From positions 1-24,228 of IMG/VR virus record IMGVR_UViG_2541047889_000005: 24,228 bases of DNA; one strand, 5' to 3'. The notes beneath the pieces were generated by a model that saw only the letters and a program-made list of their open reading frames with translations, was not told where the DNA came from and ran no database searches. Positions 3,487 through 16,432 of the stretch are shown in pieces. The stretch is from a virus. Lineage: Duplodnaviria; Heunggongvirae; Uroviricota; Caudoviricetes. Made by a program: the position numbers and the translations under genes. Within the stretch, counting starts at the first letter, position 1; every line of letters starts with the position of its first letter.

Positions 3487-3534
3487 GAGAGCGATCCTTG
3501 CACAACCGGGTAGAGTGATGTAATACAGAGCGTA

Positions 3535-3555
3535 TGTATGGAGAACCACACAAAA
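3535..3555. promoter_or_regulatory. Candidate late-promoter activator site (TGT-N12-ACA dyad; Ogr/B-type)
   Basis: tgtatggagaaccacacaaaa; shares TGT-N6-AACCACACAAA with the site at 10361-10380 in the O/P divergent region. Confidence 0.35.
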
Positions 3556-3581
3556 GAGAAACAATTTCTAAGGTATTTAAG

Positions 3582-4448
3582 ATGACACAAATCGCAATTT
3601 ATGGATTTAATTTCACTAAAAAAATCACATTTGACGGTGGTGAGTTAACTCCTATTTTCAGTTCATGGAGTGAGTTAAAAAAAAATGGCTGGGCTAATGA
3701 TAGGTACATCCTCACTGGTTTTTTCAAACCAAACTCGAATAACTACGCCACTCAACAGCAGCTTATTTTTGATTTACAAGCAGTTCTTAGTTTTATTGAA
3801 CAAAAAAATGTAATCATTTCAGGAGAACTTGAAAATGATGAAACCCCTTTCAATTTCAAACCATCTCTACCCAAAAAGCTTGACAAAAAAAGAGATAAGG
3901 GTGCGGGCATTATCATCATGGAAGATTATTTTGCACCAAACAGCCGAGAAAATTTTATTTGCTTAGCCATGGAAAAACTAAATAGTAAAGCCATGCTAAA
4001 ACAAGATGCCTTTAGAACATCATTTTTTAAATCAATGCTAGCTTTCCGCGACTCAATAAATTATATCGACGTCAGATATTATTTATTATTCTCGGCACTA
4101 GAAGCACTTTGCAGATTTATTAAAAATGACTACTCCCCTGCCAAAACACCACAAATAATCACTCAGGTTTTAAAAGAATATGGTTTTAATGTCGAAAAAA
4201 CAGGACATACATTAGCTCAAAGAAACATTATGCATTACTGCAAACTCCGTCACTCGCTGTTCCACAATGGTAAATACATTGCCTATCTTGATGAAAAAAA
4301 CTCAGATGGCAAAATTGAAATTCAAGATTACTCATCAAATTTGAATTTACTGGTGCCACTTGTACTAATGAAATTCATAGGATTTGATGACAATTATATA
4401 AACTGGGACTCATGGATTGATAGGAATCCATTTATCAGTAAAAAGTAA
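3582..4448 (+). CDS. Hypothetical protein, A+T-rich cargo gene inserted between tail genes V and S on the opposite strand
   Basis: ORF 3534..4448; likely ATG at 3582 (MTQIAIYGFNFTKKITFDGG...) with AGG RBS; strongly AT-rich compared with flanking GC-rich phage genes; no recognisable motif. Confidence 0.7.
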   Translation: MTQIAIYGFNFTKKITFDGGELTPIFSSWSELKKNGWANDRYILTGFFKPNSNNYATQQQLIFDLQAVLSFIEQKNVIISGELENDETPFNFKPSLPKKLDKKRDKGAGIIIMEDYFAPNSRENFICLAMEKLNSKAMLKQDAFRTSFFKSMLAFRDSINYIDVRYYLLFSALEALCRFIKNDYSPAKTPQIITQVLKEYGFNVEKTGHTLAQRNIMHYCKLRHSLFHNGKYIAYLDEKNSDGKIEIQDYSSNLNLLVPLVLMKFIGFDDNYINWDSWIDRNPFISKK

Positions 4449-4474
4449 ACTAAATTTTATAAATGTGGTTTTAT

Positions 4475-4921
4475 TTATCTCTGTAACCAATTTAGCAAAG
4501 CATCCTGAATGACAGTTTCCACATCATCATTTACGCCTAGGAGACGACGCTCTGCATAACGGACCTCCGGTCCTCTTCGACTGATGCGATCACGCAGGCC
4601 GTAGTGATGAACGCGGGCAATGCGCTGCACCTTACCTTCAAACTGCACGCTGGCAGAATCGGCGCTGGCGGCAGTTTTCAGGTATTTTGTGGTGCGCAGC
4701 TTTGTAAACATCTGACGTTTGATGCGCCCCTTTTTGCTGCGTGCTGTTACCCGTCGCGGCTCATAACTGCTGCCATCTGGATTGCGCTGCATCCTGATGT
4801 TCTGCTGCTGTGTCCGGCGCAGTTCCTGCGCCAGCTGGCGCATCATGCGGCTTCTTGCGGCTGGCTCCAGATTCGCCAGCAAGGCACTCAGCCAGTCGTC
4901 CACCTTCTGCAATTCAGCCAC
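4475..4921 (-). CDS. S: Tail completion protein gpS
   Basis: 148-aa ORF MAELQKVDDWLSALLANLEPAARSRMMRQLA...; position after R as in P2. Confidence 0.75.
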   Translation of the reverse strand: MAELQKVDDWLSALLANLEPAARSRMMRQLAQELRRTQQQNIRMQRNPDGSSYEPRRVTARSKKGRIKRQMFTKLRTTKYLKTAASADSASVQFEGKVQRIARVHHYGLRDRISRRGPEVRYAERRLLGVNDDVETVIQDALLNWLQR

Positions 4922-5345
4922 GTTTCACCGTCCACATTTCTTCAGGTTCATCAGGTTCCGCTATAGCTTCAACGCTCGACACACTGCCGTCAGTGCTGAC
5001 CAGCACACGCTCCGTCAGTTGCAGGTTCAGGCTGATATCACAGACATCGTTGCGCAGAATATCCACCTCAAAGGTGAATAGTTTTTCCCGTAACGCCGGG
5101 TTATTGATGGCATCGGGCTGGTTATCCCGCAGCCACAGCAAAACCGGGGCCATCAGCAGATTCTGGTCGCCGCTGAAATCCTCAATCACTGCGTTCAGCG
5201 TGTAACGGTACTCCCACGACATGGAGCTGGTCCCCGTGGCAACCAGCGAACCGTTATCCACAAACAGATGCAGTTTGTCCGGGTTATTGCGGACATAAGG
5301 CACTGCTTTATTAAGGGCGTGGCGCAGGGATTGTGGTTTGTTCAC
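4914..5345 (-). CDS. R: Tail completion protein gpR
   Basis: ORF 4914..5366; probable GTG start at 5345 preceded by AGGAGC, giving (M)NKPQSLRHALNKAV..., which matches the P2 gpR N-terminus. Confidence 0.75.
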   Translation of the reverse strand: MNKPQSLRHALNKAVPYVRNNPDKLHLFVDNGSLVATGTSSMSWEYRYTLNAVIEDFSGDQNLLMAPVLLWLRDNQPDAINNPALREKLFTFEVDILRNDVCDISLNLQLTERVLVSTDGSVSSVEAIAEPDEPEEMWTVKRG

Positions 5346-5592
5346 TGTTTCGCTCCTGACACGCAATAATCATGTCCACTTTGTCTGCACAGACCGCCCA
5401 GGCGGCCTCCGTTTCATCCAGCAACGCGTTCAGCTCACCGTTAGTGCGCGGCGCTGTCTGATCCAGCCGACACGGCGTCACTCGCGGACAACCACTGACG
5501 GTAAGCTGCACCTCCGGTGAGTGCCGGACGTTCCCGCAGCCGGATAATGTCAGCAGGCAAAGGAGTATCAGCCCAGCGGCGTAAATCCTCAT
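5311..5592 (-). CDS. lysC: Outer-membrane spanin lipoprotein (LysC/Rz1-like), embedded out of frame in lysB 3' end and overlapping R
   Basis: MRIYAAGLILLCLLTLSGC... has a lipobox (LSGC) after a signal peptide; proline-rich; nested in the +1 frame of the i-spanin gene as in P2 lysB/lysC. Confidence 0.7.
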   Translation of the reverse strand: MRIYAAGLILLCLLTLSGCGNVRHSPEVQLTVSGCPRVTPCRLDQTAPRTNGELNALLDETEAAWAVCADKVDMIIACQERNSEQTTIPAPRP

Positions 5593-5869
5593 TCTCACGT
5601 TTCAGTTCCTCAATCCGGCGTTGTCGTTGTCTCAGCAGCGCGCTGGTCTGTTCTGCGTCGGCATAGAGCCGCGCCTGCTCCCGGTTATTGGTTTCAGTCA
5701 GAATGGACAGGCTGATAAGCTGGCTGTTGCTCTTTGCCAGTGCCTGGCTTTTGCTCTGCAGCTCGTCCGCCTGCGTGCTGATGGTCCGGCTGGCATCAGC
5801 CAGCCGCCACGTCTGCCAGCCCAGCGCCGCCAGTAATAACGCCAGCATAACCAGCAGCAACCGGTTCAT
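5441..5869 (-). CDS. lysB: Inner-membrane spanin (LysB/Rz-like)
   Basis: 142 aa; N-terminal TM (MNRLLLVMLALLLAALGWQTW) followed by a coiled-coil-like charged region (ELKRENEDLRR); start overlaps lysA stop. Confidence 0.8.
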   Translation of the reverse strand: MNRLLLVMLALLLAALGWQTWRLADASRTISTQADELQSKSQALAKSNSQLISLSILTETNNREQARLYADAEQTSALLRQRQRRIEELKRENEDLRRWADTPLPADIIRLRERPALTGGAAYRQWLSASDAVSAGSDSAAH

Positions 5870-6243
5870 GCTGCTACCTGTTGCGCCATCTGATTACGGG
5901 TGATCCAGAAGGCAATAACGGTCAGTAGATAAAAGACCAGGGTAATAGCCCACCCCGTCCAGACGAGACTTACGACAATCAGCAATCGCATCACCCAGCT
6001 GATAAATACGTTTTCTTTTCGGGTAATGGTCTTCAGCAAAGATACCCTCAACTCCTGCCAGAGCGAGCCATTCTTAATTAACGCAGCCAGTGCTACCGGA
6101 ATTGCCGCCCATGTCAGTAAACAGGCTACCCAAACGCCGGACGCTGCCAGTACCGGAAAAATCCCCTGCGGATACACCATTGCTGCGATTAACAGCGCCA
6201 TCCATAACATCAGAAACAGTCCGCTGATTAATTTCTTTTTCAT
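5866..6243 (-). CDS. lysA: LysA-like lysis-timing membrane protein
   Basis: ORF 5866..6315; likely start at ATG 6243 (MKKKLISGLFLMLWMALLIAAMV...); about four hydrophobic segments; sits between endolysin and spanins as in P2. Confidence 0.65.
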   Translation of the reverse strand: MKKKLISGLFLMLWMALLIAAMVYPQGIFPVLAASGVWVACLLTWAAIPVALAALIKNGSLWQELRVSLLKTITRKENVFISWVMRLLIVVSLVWTGWAITLVFYLLTVIAFWITRNQMAQQVAA

Positions 6244-6244
6244 T

Positions 6245-6757
6245 TCAGTTTGCTCCCTGTAAGCACCAGGCCATCTCCCGCGCACGGCGGTTATCCAGCC
6301 CCTGATTAAACACACCTTTCACATACACCCAGCGCGGCAACTGTCGGCACGCATCCGCCCAGCGCCGCTGATTGAGCAATTTCACCAGCGTGGAGCTGCA
6401 GGCATTGCCTGTCCCCACGTTGAAGGCAAATGACACCACCGCGTCATACACTTTCTGCGGTGGCTGTTGCTTCACACACCTTTCCAGTGACCGCTCCACA
6501 CGCAGCACGTTGGAGATAAGCCCTTCTGCTGCCTGTCGTTCCGTAATGGTTTTGCCGGGAATGACGTCCGACGTATTACCAATGCCGTCAGTCCATACAC
6601 CCGCGCTGCACTGATACGGCTGCAGACGACAGCCTTCGTAATCGGCAATCAGTTTCAGTCCTTCCACGGAGGTGTGAAGCTGCTGAAAACCCGGCAGCGT
6701 GGCAGCAATAGCCAGCACGGCCCCGACAAGGCAGCGTTTAACGATTGATGGATTCAT
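6245..6757 (-). CDS. K: Endolysin, GH24 lysozyme family with N-terminal hydrophobic signal-anchor (SAR-type)
   Basis: 170 aa; N-terminal VKRCLVGAVLAIAATLPGF hydrophobic stretch, then ADYEGCRLQPYQCSAGVWTDGIGNT (E-x8-C/D-x5-T lysozyme catalytic motif as in P21 R-type endolysins); strong GGGAGGA RBS. Confidence 0.8.
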   Translation of the reverse strand: MNPSIVKRCLVGAVLAIAATLPGFQQLHTSVEGLKLIADYEGCRLQPYQCSAGVWTDGIGNTSDVIPGKTITERQAAEGLISNVLRVERSLERCVKQQPPQKVYDAVVSFAFNVGTGNACSSTLVKLLNQRRWADACRQLPRWVYVKGVFNQGLDNRRAREMAWCLQGAN

Positions 6758-13261: not shown

Positions 13262-14266
13262 TTATTCTTCTGAATCATCATAAACATCCATTCCTTCGGT
13301 CTGATTTCTAATATAAGAAGTCCCCATAGAATTAGCAATCGCAGTCCGAATTAACCCTACATGAGTGAAAAACACCCCTAACCTAGCACGCTTTAACTCA
13401 GACTCATCATCATAGTCATCTTCATTACTTATAATTCTTCTAACCATTGCCTTATCTTCGTCAATAGCCGAAGGTAGCCCACTCTTTAAAGCGTCAATAC
13501 ACTCACCTACAGTTATAATTTTATTTTTAATTAATTCAGAAAGCAAATCATCATAATTTTCATCATCAGATTTATTATCAGGTGGTAATTCACTTGCAGC
13601 TATCATTTTCAGCAATTCTACGTCAAGCATAGTTCCTCTATCTAGTCTGCTTGTCTCAACATACCCCTCACGCTCTGATAACACTCTTTCAAATTCGAAA
13701 TCAACGACTTCAAGCAAAGCAGATACTCTATTAATTGCTCGCCTAAGAGGAAGTGGAACACTTTGCTCTTTTTTGTATTGCAGTTTATGAGATGCTGCAG
13801 CCCAAATATGCTGAGAAAGCGTTCGTATTTGCACCTCCACTTTCATATTTTTAAAATCACTAAAGGATGGAACTCTTAGCCATTCTTCTGGAGGTTGTAT
13901 TACATAATGATGAGATTGGTACCCAAATCTATCCTCATCCAGTTCATCAAGTTTATTCTCTTGCTTCAAAATAATGAAATGTTCTTTCAGACAAGATATA
14001 ACCTTTTCAACATCTCGCTTAAATAGCATTATTAATCGGATTCCAACATAATCATCCAAGTCAACTATTGACTCAATCTTTAGAGGTTTTCGGTTATCCT
14101 TATTAATAATAGAACTTAATGTTTTGACACGGCTTTCAATTGGAACCCCTAAAGACAATTTATTCTCCGACAAAATAACATCAATTTGCTCAACCATAAC
14201 TCGTCTGAACAATTCCGCAACTGAGCCGTAAATTGAATGCTGTTCTTTTAATTCTTCGTCTGTCAT
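13262..14266 (-). CDS. RelA/SpoT-fold nucleotidyltransferase (small alarmone synthetase-like; candidate toxSAS/CapRel-like fused toxin-antitoxin)
   Basis: 334 aa; synthetase-fold motifs ESRVKTLSSIINK, DYVGIRLIMLF, FGYQSHHYVI, EVQIRTLSQHIWAAASHKLQYK; about 130-aa acidic C-terminal extension; AT-rich; lies between portal gene and cos. Confidence 0.7.
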   Translation of the reverse strand: MTDEELKEQHSIYGSVAELFRRVMVEQIDVILSENKLSLGVPIESRVKTLSSIINKDNRKPLKIESIVDLDDYVGIRLIMLFKRDVEKVISCLKEHFIILKQENKLDELDEDRFGYQSHHYVIQPPEEWLRVPSFSDFKNMKVEVQIRTLSQHIWAAASHKLQYKKEQSVPLPLRRAINRVSALLEVVDFEFERVLSEREGYVETSRLDRGTMLDVELLKMIAASELPPDNKSDDENYDDLLSELIKNKIITVGECIDALKSGLPSAIDEDKAMVRRIISNEDDYDDESELKRARLGVFFTHVGLIRTAIANSMGTSYIRNQTEGMDVYDDSEE

Positions 14267-14383
14267 CTATCTTACCTAACTTATATAAATGAATCAGATA
14301 TAAAACATTGCATAATTTTAATTCAAGTGGACAACATATAAATTATCCGATCTAAACCACTTAAACAACAGGTTTTGCGCGCG

Positions 14384-14402
14384 CTCGTATCCCCGCCACG
14401 CC
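14384..14402 (-). other. cos-like cohesive-end site (P2/186 type)
   Basis: Minus-strand GGCGTGGCGGGGATACGAG; the first 13 nt match my recollection of the P2/186 19-nt cos core (GGCG[A/T]GGCGGGGA...); located next to the portal gene as expected. Confidence 0.5.
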
Positions 14403-14451
14403 TGCCCGCTTTATGTAGTAGTTTTCATGCAGGTGCATGATCTACGCGAAA

Positions 14452-14471
14452 GCCCGCCAGTTCTGGCGGGC
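14452..14471 (-). terminator. GC-rich hairpin downstream of the membrane-protein gene (putative terminator)
   Basis: gcccgccag-tt-ctggcgggc; followed on the minus transcript by UUUCGCG. Confidence 0.4.
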
Positions 14472-14519
14472 CCTAGCAAAAACGATCCTCAAACGATCAT
14501 GCGATCTCATGCAGCATAG

Positions 14520-15362
14520 TCATGCACGATCATTTGACTCAGCATCTGCTGCACGCTTGCTGCGCGAAGATGCACTTTTACTATCAATCTTTCGACAGTT
14601 CTTTCTATCCCTGGCTTCATTTTCTTTAAATTTGTTATATGTCTCAGTATCAAAAAACGAAATTGTTTCAACCTCATCTTTTGGTATGAGCACACGGAAA
14701 TCTTCGATATTAAGCCGAGACATTCCACTTATCACACCACTATCAAGATAATGTTGGTGATAGTTAGTCGTGATACTAATCGTTAGATCATCTTTATCCC
14801 GATATCCGCTTAACATCGGGAGAAGTTCAAGGTGCTCTGAAAGCCCGTTTTCTAACGCCGGACAAGTAACAAGACCAACATAGATTTTGCGAGACGACAG
14901 AGTTGCTATGATCGGAAACTGTCTTGCGGACGCTTCCATGAGTAATGATTCGAAAGCGTTATTACCCACAGCTTTAGCTAAGGCATCCCAGCGACGATCT
15001 CCACGTGATGTGCGTAACTTATTTCCAAAACCTGAAATCGCAGCGAGGACAATTGAAATCATAACCCATGCTATCTGTTTGATTTCATTTATTCTTTGAA
15101 GTTTGTCTTTCGATGAAGACAACATGCCATTAAAACTGTCAGGTGTTAGATTCAAGGCATTAGCCAGCCAACGAAACCCTCCGCTGACGTTCAAAATAAA
15201 GGTGAAAAAACCGCCAAGGAGAAAAAAAACGATACCCCAGGCAGCCACAAAAAAATAAGCGTCCCAGCCGTTGGAACGCTTATATCGGTATCTTGTTGAA
15301 AGTGATAGGTTTACATAAATAAAACCACTAACCAAAATCACTGCTAAAAGTAATGTTGCCAT
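14520..15362 (-). CDS. Hypothetical membrane protein: three N-terminal TM helices plus about 165-aa cytoplasmic domain
   Basis: 280 aa; hydrophobic segments ATLLLAVILVSGFIYV, AYFFVAAWGIVFFLLGGFFTFIL, IAWVMISIVLAAISGF; start overlaps the stop of the upstream 71-aa gene (TAATG). Confidence 0.65.
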   Translation of the reverse strand: MATLLLAVILVSGFIYVNLSLSTRYRYKRSNGWDAYFFVAAWGIVFFLLGGFFTFILNVSGGFRWLANALNLTPDSFNGMLSSSKDKLQRINEIKQIAWVMISIVLAAISGFGNKLRTSRGDRRWDALAKAVGNNAFESLLMEASARQFPIIATLSSRKIYVGLVTCPALENGLSEHLELLPMLSGYRDKDDLTISITTNYHQHYLDSGVISGMSRLNIEDFRVLIPKDEVETISFFDTETYNKFKENEARDRKNCRKIDSKSASSRSKRAADAESNDRA

Positions 15363-15577
15363 TATCTGGTTCTATTAGTTTTCTCTTTTACAGTGCTCGT
15401 TTTGATGCCTTCAAGCTTATCCATCTGTGCCTTGATGGCATCCATTGCTCTTTTGTTAGACAAGTCTACGGACACAAAACCATCTTTACTAAGATTGAGT
15501 TTGTCCTGGTTCTCTTTAAGAACCCTTGCCAGACGTTCAACTGGGTTACCCAGGCTAAATGCGGCGATGCTTGACAT
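15362..15577 (-). CDS. Hypothetical small protein (71 aa), translationally coupled to the downstream membrane protein
   Basis: ATG preceded by a strong GGGGGAG RBS; charged and soluble; 270-bp AT-rich intergenic region upstream. Confidence 0.6.
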   Translation of the reverse strand: MSSIAAFSLGNPVERLARVLKENQDKLNLSKDGFVSVDLSNKRAMDAIKAQMDKLEGIKTSTVKEKTNRTR

Positions 15578-15847
15578 AACTCCCCCTTTTCACATGGCGC
15601 GGAAGTCTACACTCCGACGCCTACAACCTCAACAGATTATCTTTAAAATTTAGACAACAATATCATCTGTTGATTGCGTTACTTAAACTTAAGTTCAATG
15701 CGCTCGATCATGCAAGCTGTTTCTTAAGAACTGTTAATTTCCTGGCATATATAGTGGTTAAGGTAACAAATTGACACTAACGCCTCGCATAGCTCGTTGT
15801 TCAACCTTGCTGACGCCAGAAGCAAGTTCAGACGCCAGCAACGTTTC

Positions 15848-16081
15848 TTAATGCAGCCAGCTGTCGTCTTCCCACACCTTCTGCATAATTTTCATCACTT
15901 GTTTTCTTTCTTCGTCCAGTTGCAATCCGGTCAGTTCCACACCGTTAGAGCTACCTTTGCGGATACGAATTACCATTTTGGGATACAGAGGACGCAGATT
16001 GCGGTAAAGCTCGGATTCAAGGGCGTCCAGGGTAGACTGGCTAATCTTCTGCTCTTTATCGATCATTATTTCAATGCGCAT
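15848..16081 (-). CDS. DinI-family protein (SOS operon; Tum/DinI-like)
   Basis: 77 aa MRIEIMIDKEQKISQSTLDALESELYRNL...EERKQVMKIMQKVWEDDSW aligns along its length with E. coli DinI. Confidence 0.75.
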   Translation of the reverse strand: MRIEIMIDKEQKISQSTLDALESELYRNLRPLYPKMVIRIRKGSSNGVELTGLQLDEERKQVMKIMQKVWEDDSWLH

Positions 16082-16092
16082 AAAAAGTCACC

Positions 16093-16281
16093 TCAACTGA
16101 TGACATCCATTGAGCGGTTGTATTCGTGGGTTCTGATTTTTGCCATGAGTTCATCTGTTAGTTCAGAAACCCACTGCAAAGCCAGCCCCTTCTCTTCATC
16201 ACTACACTCACTAGCCGCTACAAGCTTAAGAAAAAAATCAATGCGCTGGAGCTTCAAAGACTCCAAAAAATAGTCCTGCAT
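16093..16281 (-). CDS. Hypothetical small protein (62 aa), first gene of the LexA-box operon
   Basis: GGAGGA RBS; stop is followed 11 nt later by the DinI-like start with its own GAGGTG RBS. Confidence 0.55.
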   Translation of the reverse strand: MQDYFLESLKLQRIDFFLKLVAASECSDEEKGLALQWVSELTDELMAKIRTHEYNRSMDVIS

Positions 16282-16321
16282 CTTTCCTCCTATGACACCA
16301 AAGCAATACTGTAAATATAAC

Positions 16322-16341
16322 CACTGTTTATATTTACAGTA
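16322..16341. promoter_or_regulatory. LexA operator (SOS box) inside a 13-bp-arm inverted repeat, upstream of the 62-aa/DinI-like operon
   Basis: cactgtttatatttacagta = CTGT-N8-ACAG with AT-rich spacer; part of the larger palindrome TACTGTAAATATA...TATATTTACAGTA (16307-16341). Confidence 0.7.
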
Positions 16342-16432
16342 TATAATAATCTTACTGATGTAAAACGTTTTTTACGTTCATCAGCCTGATATGCCTGGTA
16401 TTATTAAGAGCACGAATTGTTAACCCGCGTAA

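Follow-up and report, generated by a model that had tools for sequence, protein, structure and literature searches.

A mobile two-gene membrane cassette beside cos in a 186-like Escherichia coli prophage is a candidate toxin-antitoxin-like defence module

The virus record IMGVR_UViG_2541047889_000005 from IMG/VR carries, between its SOS operon and the cos region, a cassette of two genes that encode a 71-residue soluble protein and a 280-residue inner-membrane protein. The stretch analysed here, positions 1 to 24,228 of that record and referred to below as the window, is a 186/Fels-2-like Peduoviridae prophage integrated in Escherichia coli. We find that the two genes form an obligate pair and that the region is a horizontally mobile accessory ("moron") cassette that moves as a unit, with a large protein whose cytoplasmic domain is an Sm-like β-barrel in its predicted structure. 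An initial annotation of the window had proposed the pair as an undescribed defence or exclusion module. Comparative data and an independent machine-learning prediction make it a reasonable candidate for such a role, and the reading we favour, with a probability of roughly 40%, is a toxin-antitoxin (TA)-like anti-phage module that acts at the membrane. New in this analysis are the Sm-like fold of the cytoplasmic domain, the connection with DUF6338, the size of the family, and a universal small partner with a TA-like pattern of decay.

Both genes lie on the minus strand. The small gene (15362–15577; WP_000094764; PHROG 9843) comes first and encodes the soluble partner, while the large gene (14520–15362; WP_021556032; PHROG 3630) encodes the membrane protein. 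They overlap by a single base in a TAATG motif: in the junction, GAACCAGATAATGGCAAC, the TAA stop codon of the small gene and the ATG start codon of the large gene share base 15362, which bears out the overlap described in the initial annotation. The small gene has the strong Shine-Dalgarno sequence that was also described there, AGGGGGAG, at 15587–15580 and 2 nt ahead of its ATG. No Shine-Dalgarno sequence is found upstream of the large gene, which fits translational coupling to the small gene, and translation of the large gene probably depends on this coupling. The cassette is AT-rich, as had been noted, with a G+C fraction of 0.41 versus 0.53 for gpA and 0.50 for the portal gene. Between the pair in the window and a copy in a Klebsiella phage there are 114 synonymous and 40 nonsynonymous codon differences, indicating purifying selection. 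Because of this synonymous excess and the existence of hundreds of homologous loci, sequence comparison identifies both open reading frames (ORFs) as real genes and not chance ORFs.

Linkage of the two genes is strict. We analysed 169 loci, comprising a sample of 160 from IMG/VR and GTDB species representatives and nine that had been fetched earlier. Every one of the 153 loci that have a full-length large gene also has a small ORF immediately 5′ of it on the same strand (153/153). In 129 of these 153 loci, an iterative hidden Markov model (HMM) search identifies the upstream ORF as a homolog of the 71-residue protein, and the other 24, from Pseudomonas, Alteromonas, and Xanthomonas, encode the same hairpin-helix pattern, V-G-R-G-x-L-x-V-D...Y..A..Q..K. 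The spacing between the genes is most often -1 or -4 nt (69 loci). At nine loci a truncated or frameshifted large gene sits beside an intact small gene, and an intact large gene with a decayed small gene was never seen among the 169 loci. Such one-sided decay, in which only the small gene stays intact (9 versus 0), would be expected of a large protein that is harmful when produced alone.

The large protein was described in the initial annotation as having three N-terminal transmembrane (TM) helices followed by a cytoplasmic domain of ~165 residues with a basic tail, a description that our analysis reproduces. Kyte-Doolittle windows identify hydrophobic segments at residues 1–23, 34–63, and 94–112. 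The codons of this membrane region occupy 15027–15362 (minus strand) and specify TM1 (residues 1–23), a short loop (24–33), TM2 (34–63), a periplasmic loop (64–93), and TM3 (94–112). The 24–33 loop is basic (RYRYKRS), six lysine or arginine residues occur in the 22 residues that follow TM3, and this lysine/arginine-rich loop pattern is kept across 33 homologs. With the positive-inside rule, the hydrophobicity analysis predicts an inner-membrane protein with three TM helices and an N-out/C-in topology. The C-terminal part that would face the cytoplasm measures 167 residues, and its final 40 residues contain 12 lysine or arginine residues versus 7 aspartate or glutamate residues. An AF2 model of the protein, with a predicted local distance difference test (pLDDT) score of 80.6, has long helices at residues 2–29, 33–60, and 87–119, and R29, Y36, and G43 are invariant in the family alignment.

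In this model, residues ~136–236 (codons 14655–14957, minus strand) form an N-terminal helix and a five-stranded, strongly bent antiparallel sheet, the arrangement that defines the Sm/LSm fold. The domain, an Sm-like β-barrel by this modelled structure, carries the signature S-R-K-x-Y-V-G ... L-P-x-L-S-G-Y-R-D-K-D ... T-x-N-Y ... F-F-D-x-x-T-Y. Its fold resembles that of Sm, LSm, and Hfq proteins, including the ligand-sensing WYL domains, but the large protein lacks Sm sequence similarity and its domain is tethered to three TM helices. The Sm1 and Sm2 sequence motifs were not found, with no LSM or Hfq family among the Pfam matches, and a sequence search of the PDB with the large protein returned no match at E ≤ 10. 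A literature search that combined Sm-like, transmembrane, and anti-phage terms returned WYL regulators only.

The initial annotation recognised no motif in either protein. Scans of both proteins against Pfam, PADLOC, and NCBIfam likewise gave nothing significant, but relatives of the pair do exist: in addition to the Sm-like fold, they comprise PHROG 3630, PHROG 9843, and a superfamily related to DUF6338. The large protein matches phrog_3630 with an E-value of 8.8e-99, a family annotated in PHROG as "unknown function". A profile search of 1.84 billion representative proteins retrieved 2,885 clusters at 50% identity, 2,006 of them at E ≤ 1e-10, nearly all of which are full-length proteins of 230–300 residues, and the superfamily ranges from Proteobacteria to Acidobacteria. 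Its most distant members carry the Pfam domain DUF6338 (PF19865). Alignment of the window family (A1) with DUF6338-positive proteins (A5) by hhalign gave a probability of 99.9% and an E-value of 1.6e-32 over 219 columns, and the two groups have in common an N-terminal TM region and the signature S-x-K-x-Y-V-G, L-P-x-x-S-G-Y-R-D-K-D, T-x-x-Y, F-D-x-x-x-Y. The DUF6338-positive proteins also have a small ORF directly upstream. In contrast to these proteins, the window protein falls below the Pfam model, with no match to the DUF6338 HMM at E ≤ 1; the gathering score of 26.5 bits is passed only by the distant relatives P0320 (27.7) and P0325 (36.6). Our literature search found no function described for DUF6338 and one proteomics paper that is unrelated, so that the link to this uncharacterised family of integral-membrane proteins gives no mechanism. 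Biosynthetic gene clusters are one reported setting of DUF6338 (PMC10433244).

The small protein is charged and soluble, as the initial annotation had stated, with 14 lysine or arginine residues, 9 aspartate or glutamate residues, and no hydrophobic segment. It matches phrog_9843, which PHROG annotates as "unknown function". Its AF2 model consists of a helix, a β-hairpin, a second helix, and a basic disordered tail. No structural neighbours of the model were found, and a PDB sequence search with the small protein gave only noise. The NCBI name "multidrug ABC transporter ATPase" for this 71-residue protein is a misannotation, given its length and the lack of any ATPase motif. That name has propagated through many NCBI and UniRef records, and one record calls the protein "YobD membrane protein", although it has neither ATPase nor TM features.

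The cassette is variable cargo. Its flanks match 1,274 of 5,426 complete E. coli genomes, and the cassette itself is present at ≥80% coverage in 52 of the 5,426, with ≥99% identity in 50 of these; a further ten genomes carry a relative that is 68% identical (52–62 in total). It is thus found in ~1% of E. coli genomes and ~4% of those that carry the flanks, and P2, 186, Fels-2, and others are without it. The slot between gpA, cos, and Q houses 72 of the 160 sampled loci, including those in P2-like phages of Photorhabdus, Edwardsiella, and Serratia, with gpA proteins that are 33–39% identical. Elsewhere, the pair occupies junctions between tail genes of lambdoid phages (K|I, L|K, and before L), a position 5′ of the tape-measure gene in an Aeromonas prophage, and the edge of a P2-like prophage in Shewanella. 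Two hallmarks of a moron, a deviant base composition and a position between genes that adjoin each other in related phages, are observed; as for a promoter and a terminator of its own, the cassette has a promoter-like element, and the downstream hairpin is part of the backbone. The initial annotation had stated that its proposal would be overturned if the homologs proved to be core genes of 186-like phages with a known regulatory or morphogenetic role; the homologs found here are variable cargo in several slots. Genes on the far side of cos vary independently of the pair and include a RelA_SpoT gene (in the window and in SCU-485), a 557-residue hypothetical protein, a SEFIR protein, a P-loop NTPase, and two hypothetical proteins. 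This independent turnover indicates that the pair is a self-contained module and neither part of a larger system nor a core phage gene.

The clade that holds the window protein is nearly all prophage-borne and patchy, and integrase, portal, terminase, and tail genes are the commonest neighbour families even for distant members of the superfamily. Distant members occur in chromosomal islets between housekeeping genes, or near insertion sequence elements and an Abi_alpha gene. In E. coli FDAARGOS_943 (NZ_CP065615), a pair that is ~52% identical to the one in the window and encodes proteins of 68 and 272 residues is located at 4945–6376 in a lambdoid nin region, with a Hok/Gef toxin gene as its direct neighbour; the nin position gives the family a second accessory slot in E. 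coli, independent of the first. In fluorescent pseudomonads (loci L139–L163, from the Pseudomonas fluorescens group, and L173), an ORF of 66–69 residues overlaps a 275-residue gene by 13 nt. The upstream neighbours of this distant pair are similar between species, with one copy between yggL and a dacB-like gene, which suggests a stable chromosomal copy and not fast-turnover cargo.

Two earlier studies have touched on the cassette. The gpA–gpQ slot of P2-like phages holds 1,650 gene arrangements and is rich in defence systems, with more than one third of cloned systems active and several anti-phage systems validated from the slot (Rousset et al, 2022; PMC9122126). WP_000094764 and WP_021556032 are listed in Table S5A of that work as "hypothetical + hypothetical", and with the family also touching Pfam DUF6338, the pair cannot be called wholly undescribed. 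Table S5 of the DefensePredictor study (2026; PMC13092281) lists WP_000212611.1, of 280 residues (843 nt), as a "Predicted novel defense gene", with a log-odds score of 5.10 against a cutoff of 4 and an HHpred match to DUF6338 at 94.3%. This protein is very probably an allele of the large protein in the window because WP_000212611 appears in a hotspot locus (Table S5A of Rousset et al, 2022) beside the exact small protein found here.

We favour a TA-like membrane module because the small gene comes first and is coupled to the large one, the pairing is strict, and the large gene is the first to decay, and because a multi-TM protein with a ring-forming type of cytoplasmic fold is found at moron and hotspot sites in several types of phage. 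From these features we infer oligomerisation, partner binding, toxicity, and an anti-phage role as follows. The Sm-like domains, a fold that typically builds hexameric or heptameric rings, would oligomerise the large protein, and in the ring 18–21 TM helices would be gathered as a latent pore or a lesion in the membrane. The small partner, kept at a fixed stoichiometry by translational coupling, would bind the cytoplasmic ring and either keep it closed or act as a sensor. Infection by another phage could remove or alter the small partner, or supply a nucleic-acid or nucleotide ligand to the Sm/WYL-like domain; WYL-type sensor domains have the Sm-like fold, which makes such sensing by the ring plausible. 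The released effector would then depolarise the membrane, leading to abortive infection, or block genome entry.

Several observations weigh against this reading. The systems that Rousset et al (2022; PMC9122126) cloned do not include the pair, which is also absent from the supplements of Vassallo et al (2022). WP_000212611 does not appear in the tables of tested and validated genes from DefensePredictor, DUF6338 is not among its newly validated domains, and 45% of tested units in that study were validated, fewer at low scores (PMC13092281). Searches of the 5,027 models in PADLOC-DB v2.0.0 gave a best E-value of 0.14 for the large protein and no match for the small one, and a literature search found no experiment on any family member. 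Few known defence genes occur among 122 immediate neighbours of distant relatives, and these relatives are often in ordinary chromosomal contexts between housekeeping genes. The model of the small protein has low confidence (pLDDT 67), and family-wide counts of promoter-like sites do not differ significantly from those in shuffled sequences (26 versus 19.9 ± 3.7). The proposal of a defence or exclusion module is supported in part: the hotspot slot, the variability of the cargo, its mobility as a unit, the strict linkage, and the DefensePredictor score speak for it, while the lack of a match to known defence models and the frequent absence of defence neighbours near distant relatives limit it.

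The closest characterised layout is that of SpoIISA and SpoIISB, which are not homologous to the pair. The Bacillus toxin SpoIISA, of 248 residues, has three TM segments at its N terminus, and its C-terminal two-thirds are cytoplasmic; its antitoxin SpoIISB is a small cytosolic protein that wraps around this cytoplasmic domain (PMC3057836). In both cases the gene for a small soluble protein adjoins one whose multi-TM product has a cytoplasmic domain, and the predicted N-out/C-in topology is alike. However, the domain is GAF-like in SpoIISA and Sm-like here, the toxin gene comes first in spoIIS whereas the small gene comes first here, the host phyla differ, and there is no sequence homology, with no PDB sequence match to SpoIISA or SpoIISB even though 3O6Q is in the PDB. 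Cargo from the P2 hotspot, such as old and tin, and the systems of Rousset et al (2022) resemble the cassette in occupying the same gpA–gpQ/cos locus and in being short, AT-rich, and variable, with a presumed membrane effector. Old, Tin, and the 3-TM protein of the P4 "Hydrolase + 3TM" system are nevertheless unrelated to either window protein (no PADLOC match), and candidates from the Rousset set, including "Hydrolase+3TM", "3HP", and others, were rejected after neither PADLOC nor an N-terminal sequence search of their Table S2 gave a match. A further likeness is to a mechanosensitive channel and is one of architecture only: the large protein is predicted to be N-out with three TM helices and a cytoplasmic Sm-like domain. 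MscS has an N-out/C-in plan with three TM helices and a cytoplasmic Sm-like β domain and assembles as a heptameric ring. Homology to MscS was rejected, with an hhalign probability of 0.1% against the E. coli MscS sequence and no Pfam MS_channel match.

Other functions would account for some of the same observations. The large protein could be a superinfection exclusion protein that blocks genome injection at the inner membrane and causes no cell death, with the small protein as an assembly factor or regulator, in the manner of HK97 gp15, T4 Imm, or P22 SieA. HK97 gp15, the product of a moron in the tail operon, prevents DNA entry, and the pair is found both at classic moron positions in the tail operons of lambdoid and other siphophages and beside cos in P2-like phages; the predicted inner-membrane location and cytoplasmic domain of the large protein also suit such a role. 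Known superinfection exclusion proteins, however, are single small membrane proteins that lack an obligate soluble partner. A regulated toxic effector is suggested by how strictly the two genes are linked and by the large gene being lost first, and many members reside outside prophages, where excluding related phages makes less sense. We regard exclusion without suicide as unlikely. The linkage and the order of gene loss are also in keeping with a selfish addiction module, in which a membrane toxin and a labile small antitoxin stabilise the element that carries them and have no anti-phage role. Placement of the small gene first, translational coupling, the copy beside hok/gef in a nin region, the isolated chromosomal islets, and the precedent of SpoIISAB all agree with this explanation, but rapid turnover of hotspot cargo is the opposite of stabilisation and the small protein does not have the DNA-binding fold that is typical of autoregulating antitoxins. 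Purely selfish addiction appears improbable, although the many TA systems that double as defence systems make it overlap with the TA-like anti-phage reading.

A physiological membrane function, in envelope or stress homeostasis, transport, or the handling of RNA or nucleotides, could be carried by prophages as a lysogenic-conversion or fitness trait. The huge size of the superfamily (2,885 clusters at 50% identity, from Proteobacteria to Acidobacteria), the many copies between housekeeping genes, the syntenic-looking upstream neighbours in fluorescent pseudomonads, the reported occurrence of DUF6338 in biosynthetic gene clusters (PMC10433244), and the few defence neighbours are all as such a function would have it. 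Set against these are the almost exclusively prophage-borne and patchy distribution of the window clade, the predominance of integrase, portal, terminase, and tail genes around even distant members, and the machine-learning prediction of defence by DefensePredictor, and we doubt that housekeeping explains the pair. A role in the lytic cycle of the carrier phage, whether in the timing of lysis or in anchoring replication or packaging to the membrane near cos, is very unlikely because the cassette is missing from ~96% of the E. coli genomes that have its flanks. P2, 186, and Fels-2 also do without it, and the pair is found outside phages and, within them, in types and at positions that are unrelated. 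In favour of this role, the pair shares a strand with the early/replication operon (gpA, dinI), from which transcription could read past the hairpin that follows dinI, and has a long association with P2-like phages of many genera.

If the TA-like membrane module is protective, it would add a defence system built from two protein families that have no characterised member. Three TM helices joined to an Sm-like ring domain are an effector architecture that has not been described in any validated system, and protection would provide the first functional handle on the DUF6338-related superfamily (~2,900 clusters), each with a previously unannotated obligate small partner. Two routes of prediction, hotspot location (Rousset et al, 2022) and protein-language-model scoring (DefensePredictor, 2026), converge on the cassette. 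A broader and rather improbable extension is that DUF6338-related pairs constitute an unrecognised, widespread class in which an Sm-ring gated pore with an MscS-like plan, governed by a small controller of 60–70 residues, would sense nucleic acids or nucleotides at the inner membrane and depolarise it. A gated Sm-ring pore that senses, for example, incoming phage DNA would represent a new abortive-infection effector and a new sensor principle, spread over thousands of protein clusters from Gram-negative phyla. Should the pair instead prove to be only a TA or housekeeping module, it would serve as a warning that a hotspot position and a membrane protein are insufficient as evidence of defence.

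The genes near the cassette include cII, fil, a DUF5347 gene, a TraR/DksA gene, a Dam methylase gene, and the gene for the replication endonuclease gpA, and the order along the window is gpA, a 62-residue ORF, DinI, the cassette, the cos block, an ORF with a RelA_SpoT domain, and then the portal and terminase genes. The initial annotation had placed the cassette between the SOS operon and cos, where P2 carries tin and old, and this gene order, the LexA box, and dinI agree with that placement. The upstream backbone (15771–16339, minus strand) consists of the LexA box, the 62-residue ORF (16281–16093), DinI (16081–15848; Pfam E-value 5.4e-23), and a hairpin (~15803–15845). The LexA box, CTGTTTATATTTACAG at 16324–16339, is the only perfect one in the window and lies just 5′ of the 62-residue ORF and dinI, which supports SOS control of that operon. 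The post-dinI hairpin (-23.5 kcal/mol, z -3.3) has no U-tract, and SOS or early-lytic transcription may therefore read through into the cassette. On the other side, the cos flank (14375–14528, unstranded) is a conserved backbone block of 154 bp that contains a cohesive-end-like cos sequence, GGCGTGGCGGGGATACGAG, at ~14384–14402 and a GC-rich hairpin, GGGCCCGCCAG/CUGGCGGGCUU, at ~14450–14473 with a folding energy of -32.5 kcal/mol (z -2.5). This block is 90–93% identical to that of Fels-2, RE2010, and Yersinia and Klebsiella P2-like phages that do not have the cassette. The hairpin 3′ of the genes in the initial annotation is therefore present but belongs to the conserved cos flank and not to the cassette; judged by its predicted fold, it can serve as a terminator for the cassette. 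The hairpin after dinI is likewise part of the backbone.

Cassette-specific DNA extends from ~14529 to 15770, with backbone homology resuming at ~15771. The intergenic spacer that had been described upstream of the small gene is present at 15578–15847 (270 bp), and its proximal ~190 bp (15578–15770, minus strand) are a cassette-specific non-coding region that travels with both genes. This region contains a promoter-like element, TTGAGG (15632–15627) and TAGACT (15609–15604) separated by a 17-nt spacer. In an alignment of 15 loci, the pattern TTGnnn-17-TAnAnT is kept 24–30 nt before the start codon in ~10 sequence variants, one of which reads TTGTAG-17-TATAAT. A strict σ70 scan of the 270-bp spacer found no minus-strand promoter, with the TTGAGG-17-TAGACT element scoring 8/12. 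An autonomous promoter for the cassette is likely from these sequence features, but the family-wide promoter count is not above that of shuffled controls, and conservation of the promoter-like element is claimed for the close clade only. The upstream leader (15660–15772, minus strand) contains further conserved blocks, seen in loci L002, L021, L026, L036, and L038. One is an inverted repeat, AGTGCCT-N(11-12)-AGGCACT, followed by TATATATGCT, which Klebsiella/Serratia-type copies have in intact form and the window in a degenerate one, and the other is CTTGC-N17-TTAAGT followed by TAAGTAACGCAAYCAACAG. The blocks might serve as an operator or a second promoter, or specify a small RNA; an Rfam search of 14200–16400 gave only a sub-threshold miRNA match, with no match to the leader blocks.

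Across cos from the pair, at 13262–14266 (minus strand), the window has an intact ORF of 334 residues whose N-terminal part is a RelA/SpoT small-alarmone-synthetase domain, with an acidic extension of ~130 residues at the C terminus. Its G+C fraction is 0.355, and it matches Pfam RelA_SpoT (E-value 7.5e-20), the PADLOC candidate PDC-S33 (E-value 1.8e-16), and YjbM/YwaC in the PDB. It is separate hotspot cargo and possibly a toxSAS/CapRel-like defence gene. We rejected it as a component of the pair's system: it lies across cos, the match to the window extends there in only one complete E. coli genome, and other carriers of the pair have SEFIR, P-loop NTPase, or other genes at that position. In SCU-485, the region homologous to the RelA_SpoT ORF differs from that in the window and is annotated as three fragments. 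In the Klebsiella phage ST15-OXA48phi14.1, a SEFIR-domain protein and a 69-residue ORF (3497–5136) lie across cos from the same pair and are a likely defence candidate in the same hotspot.

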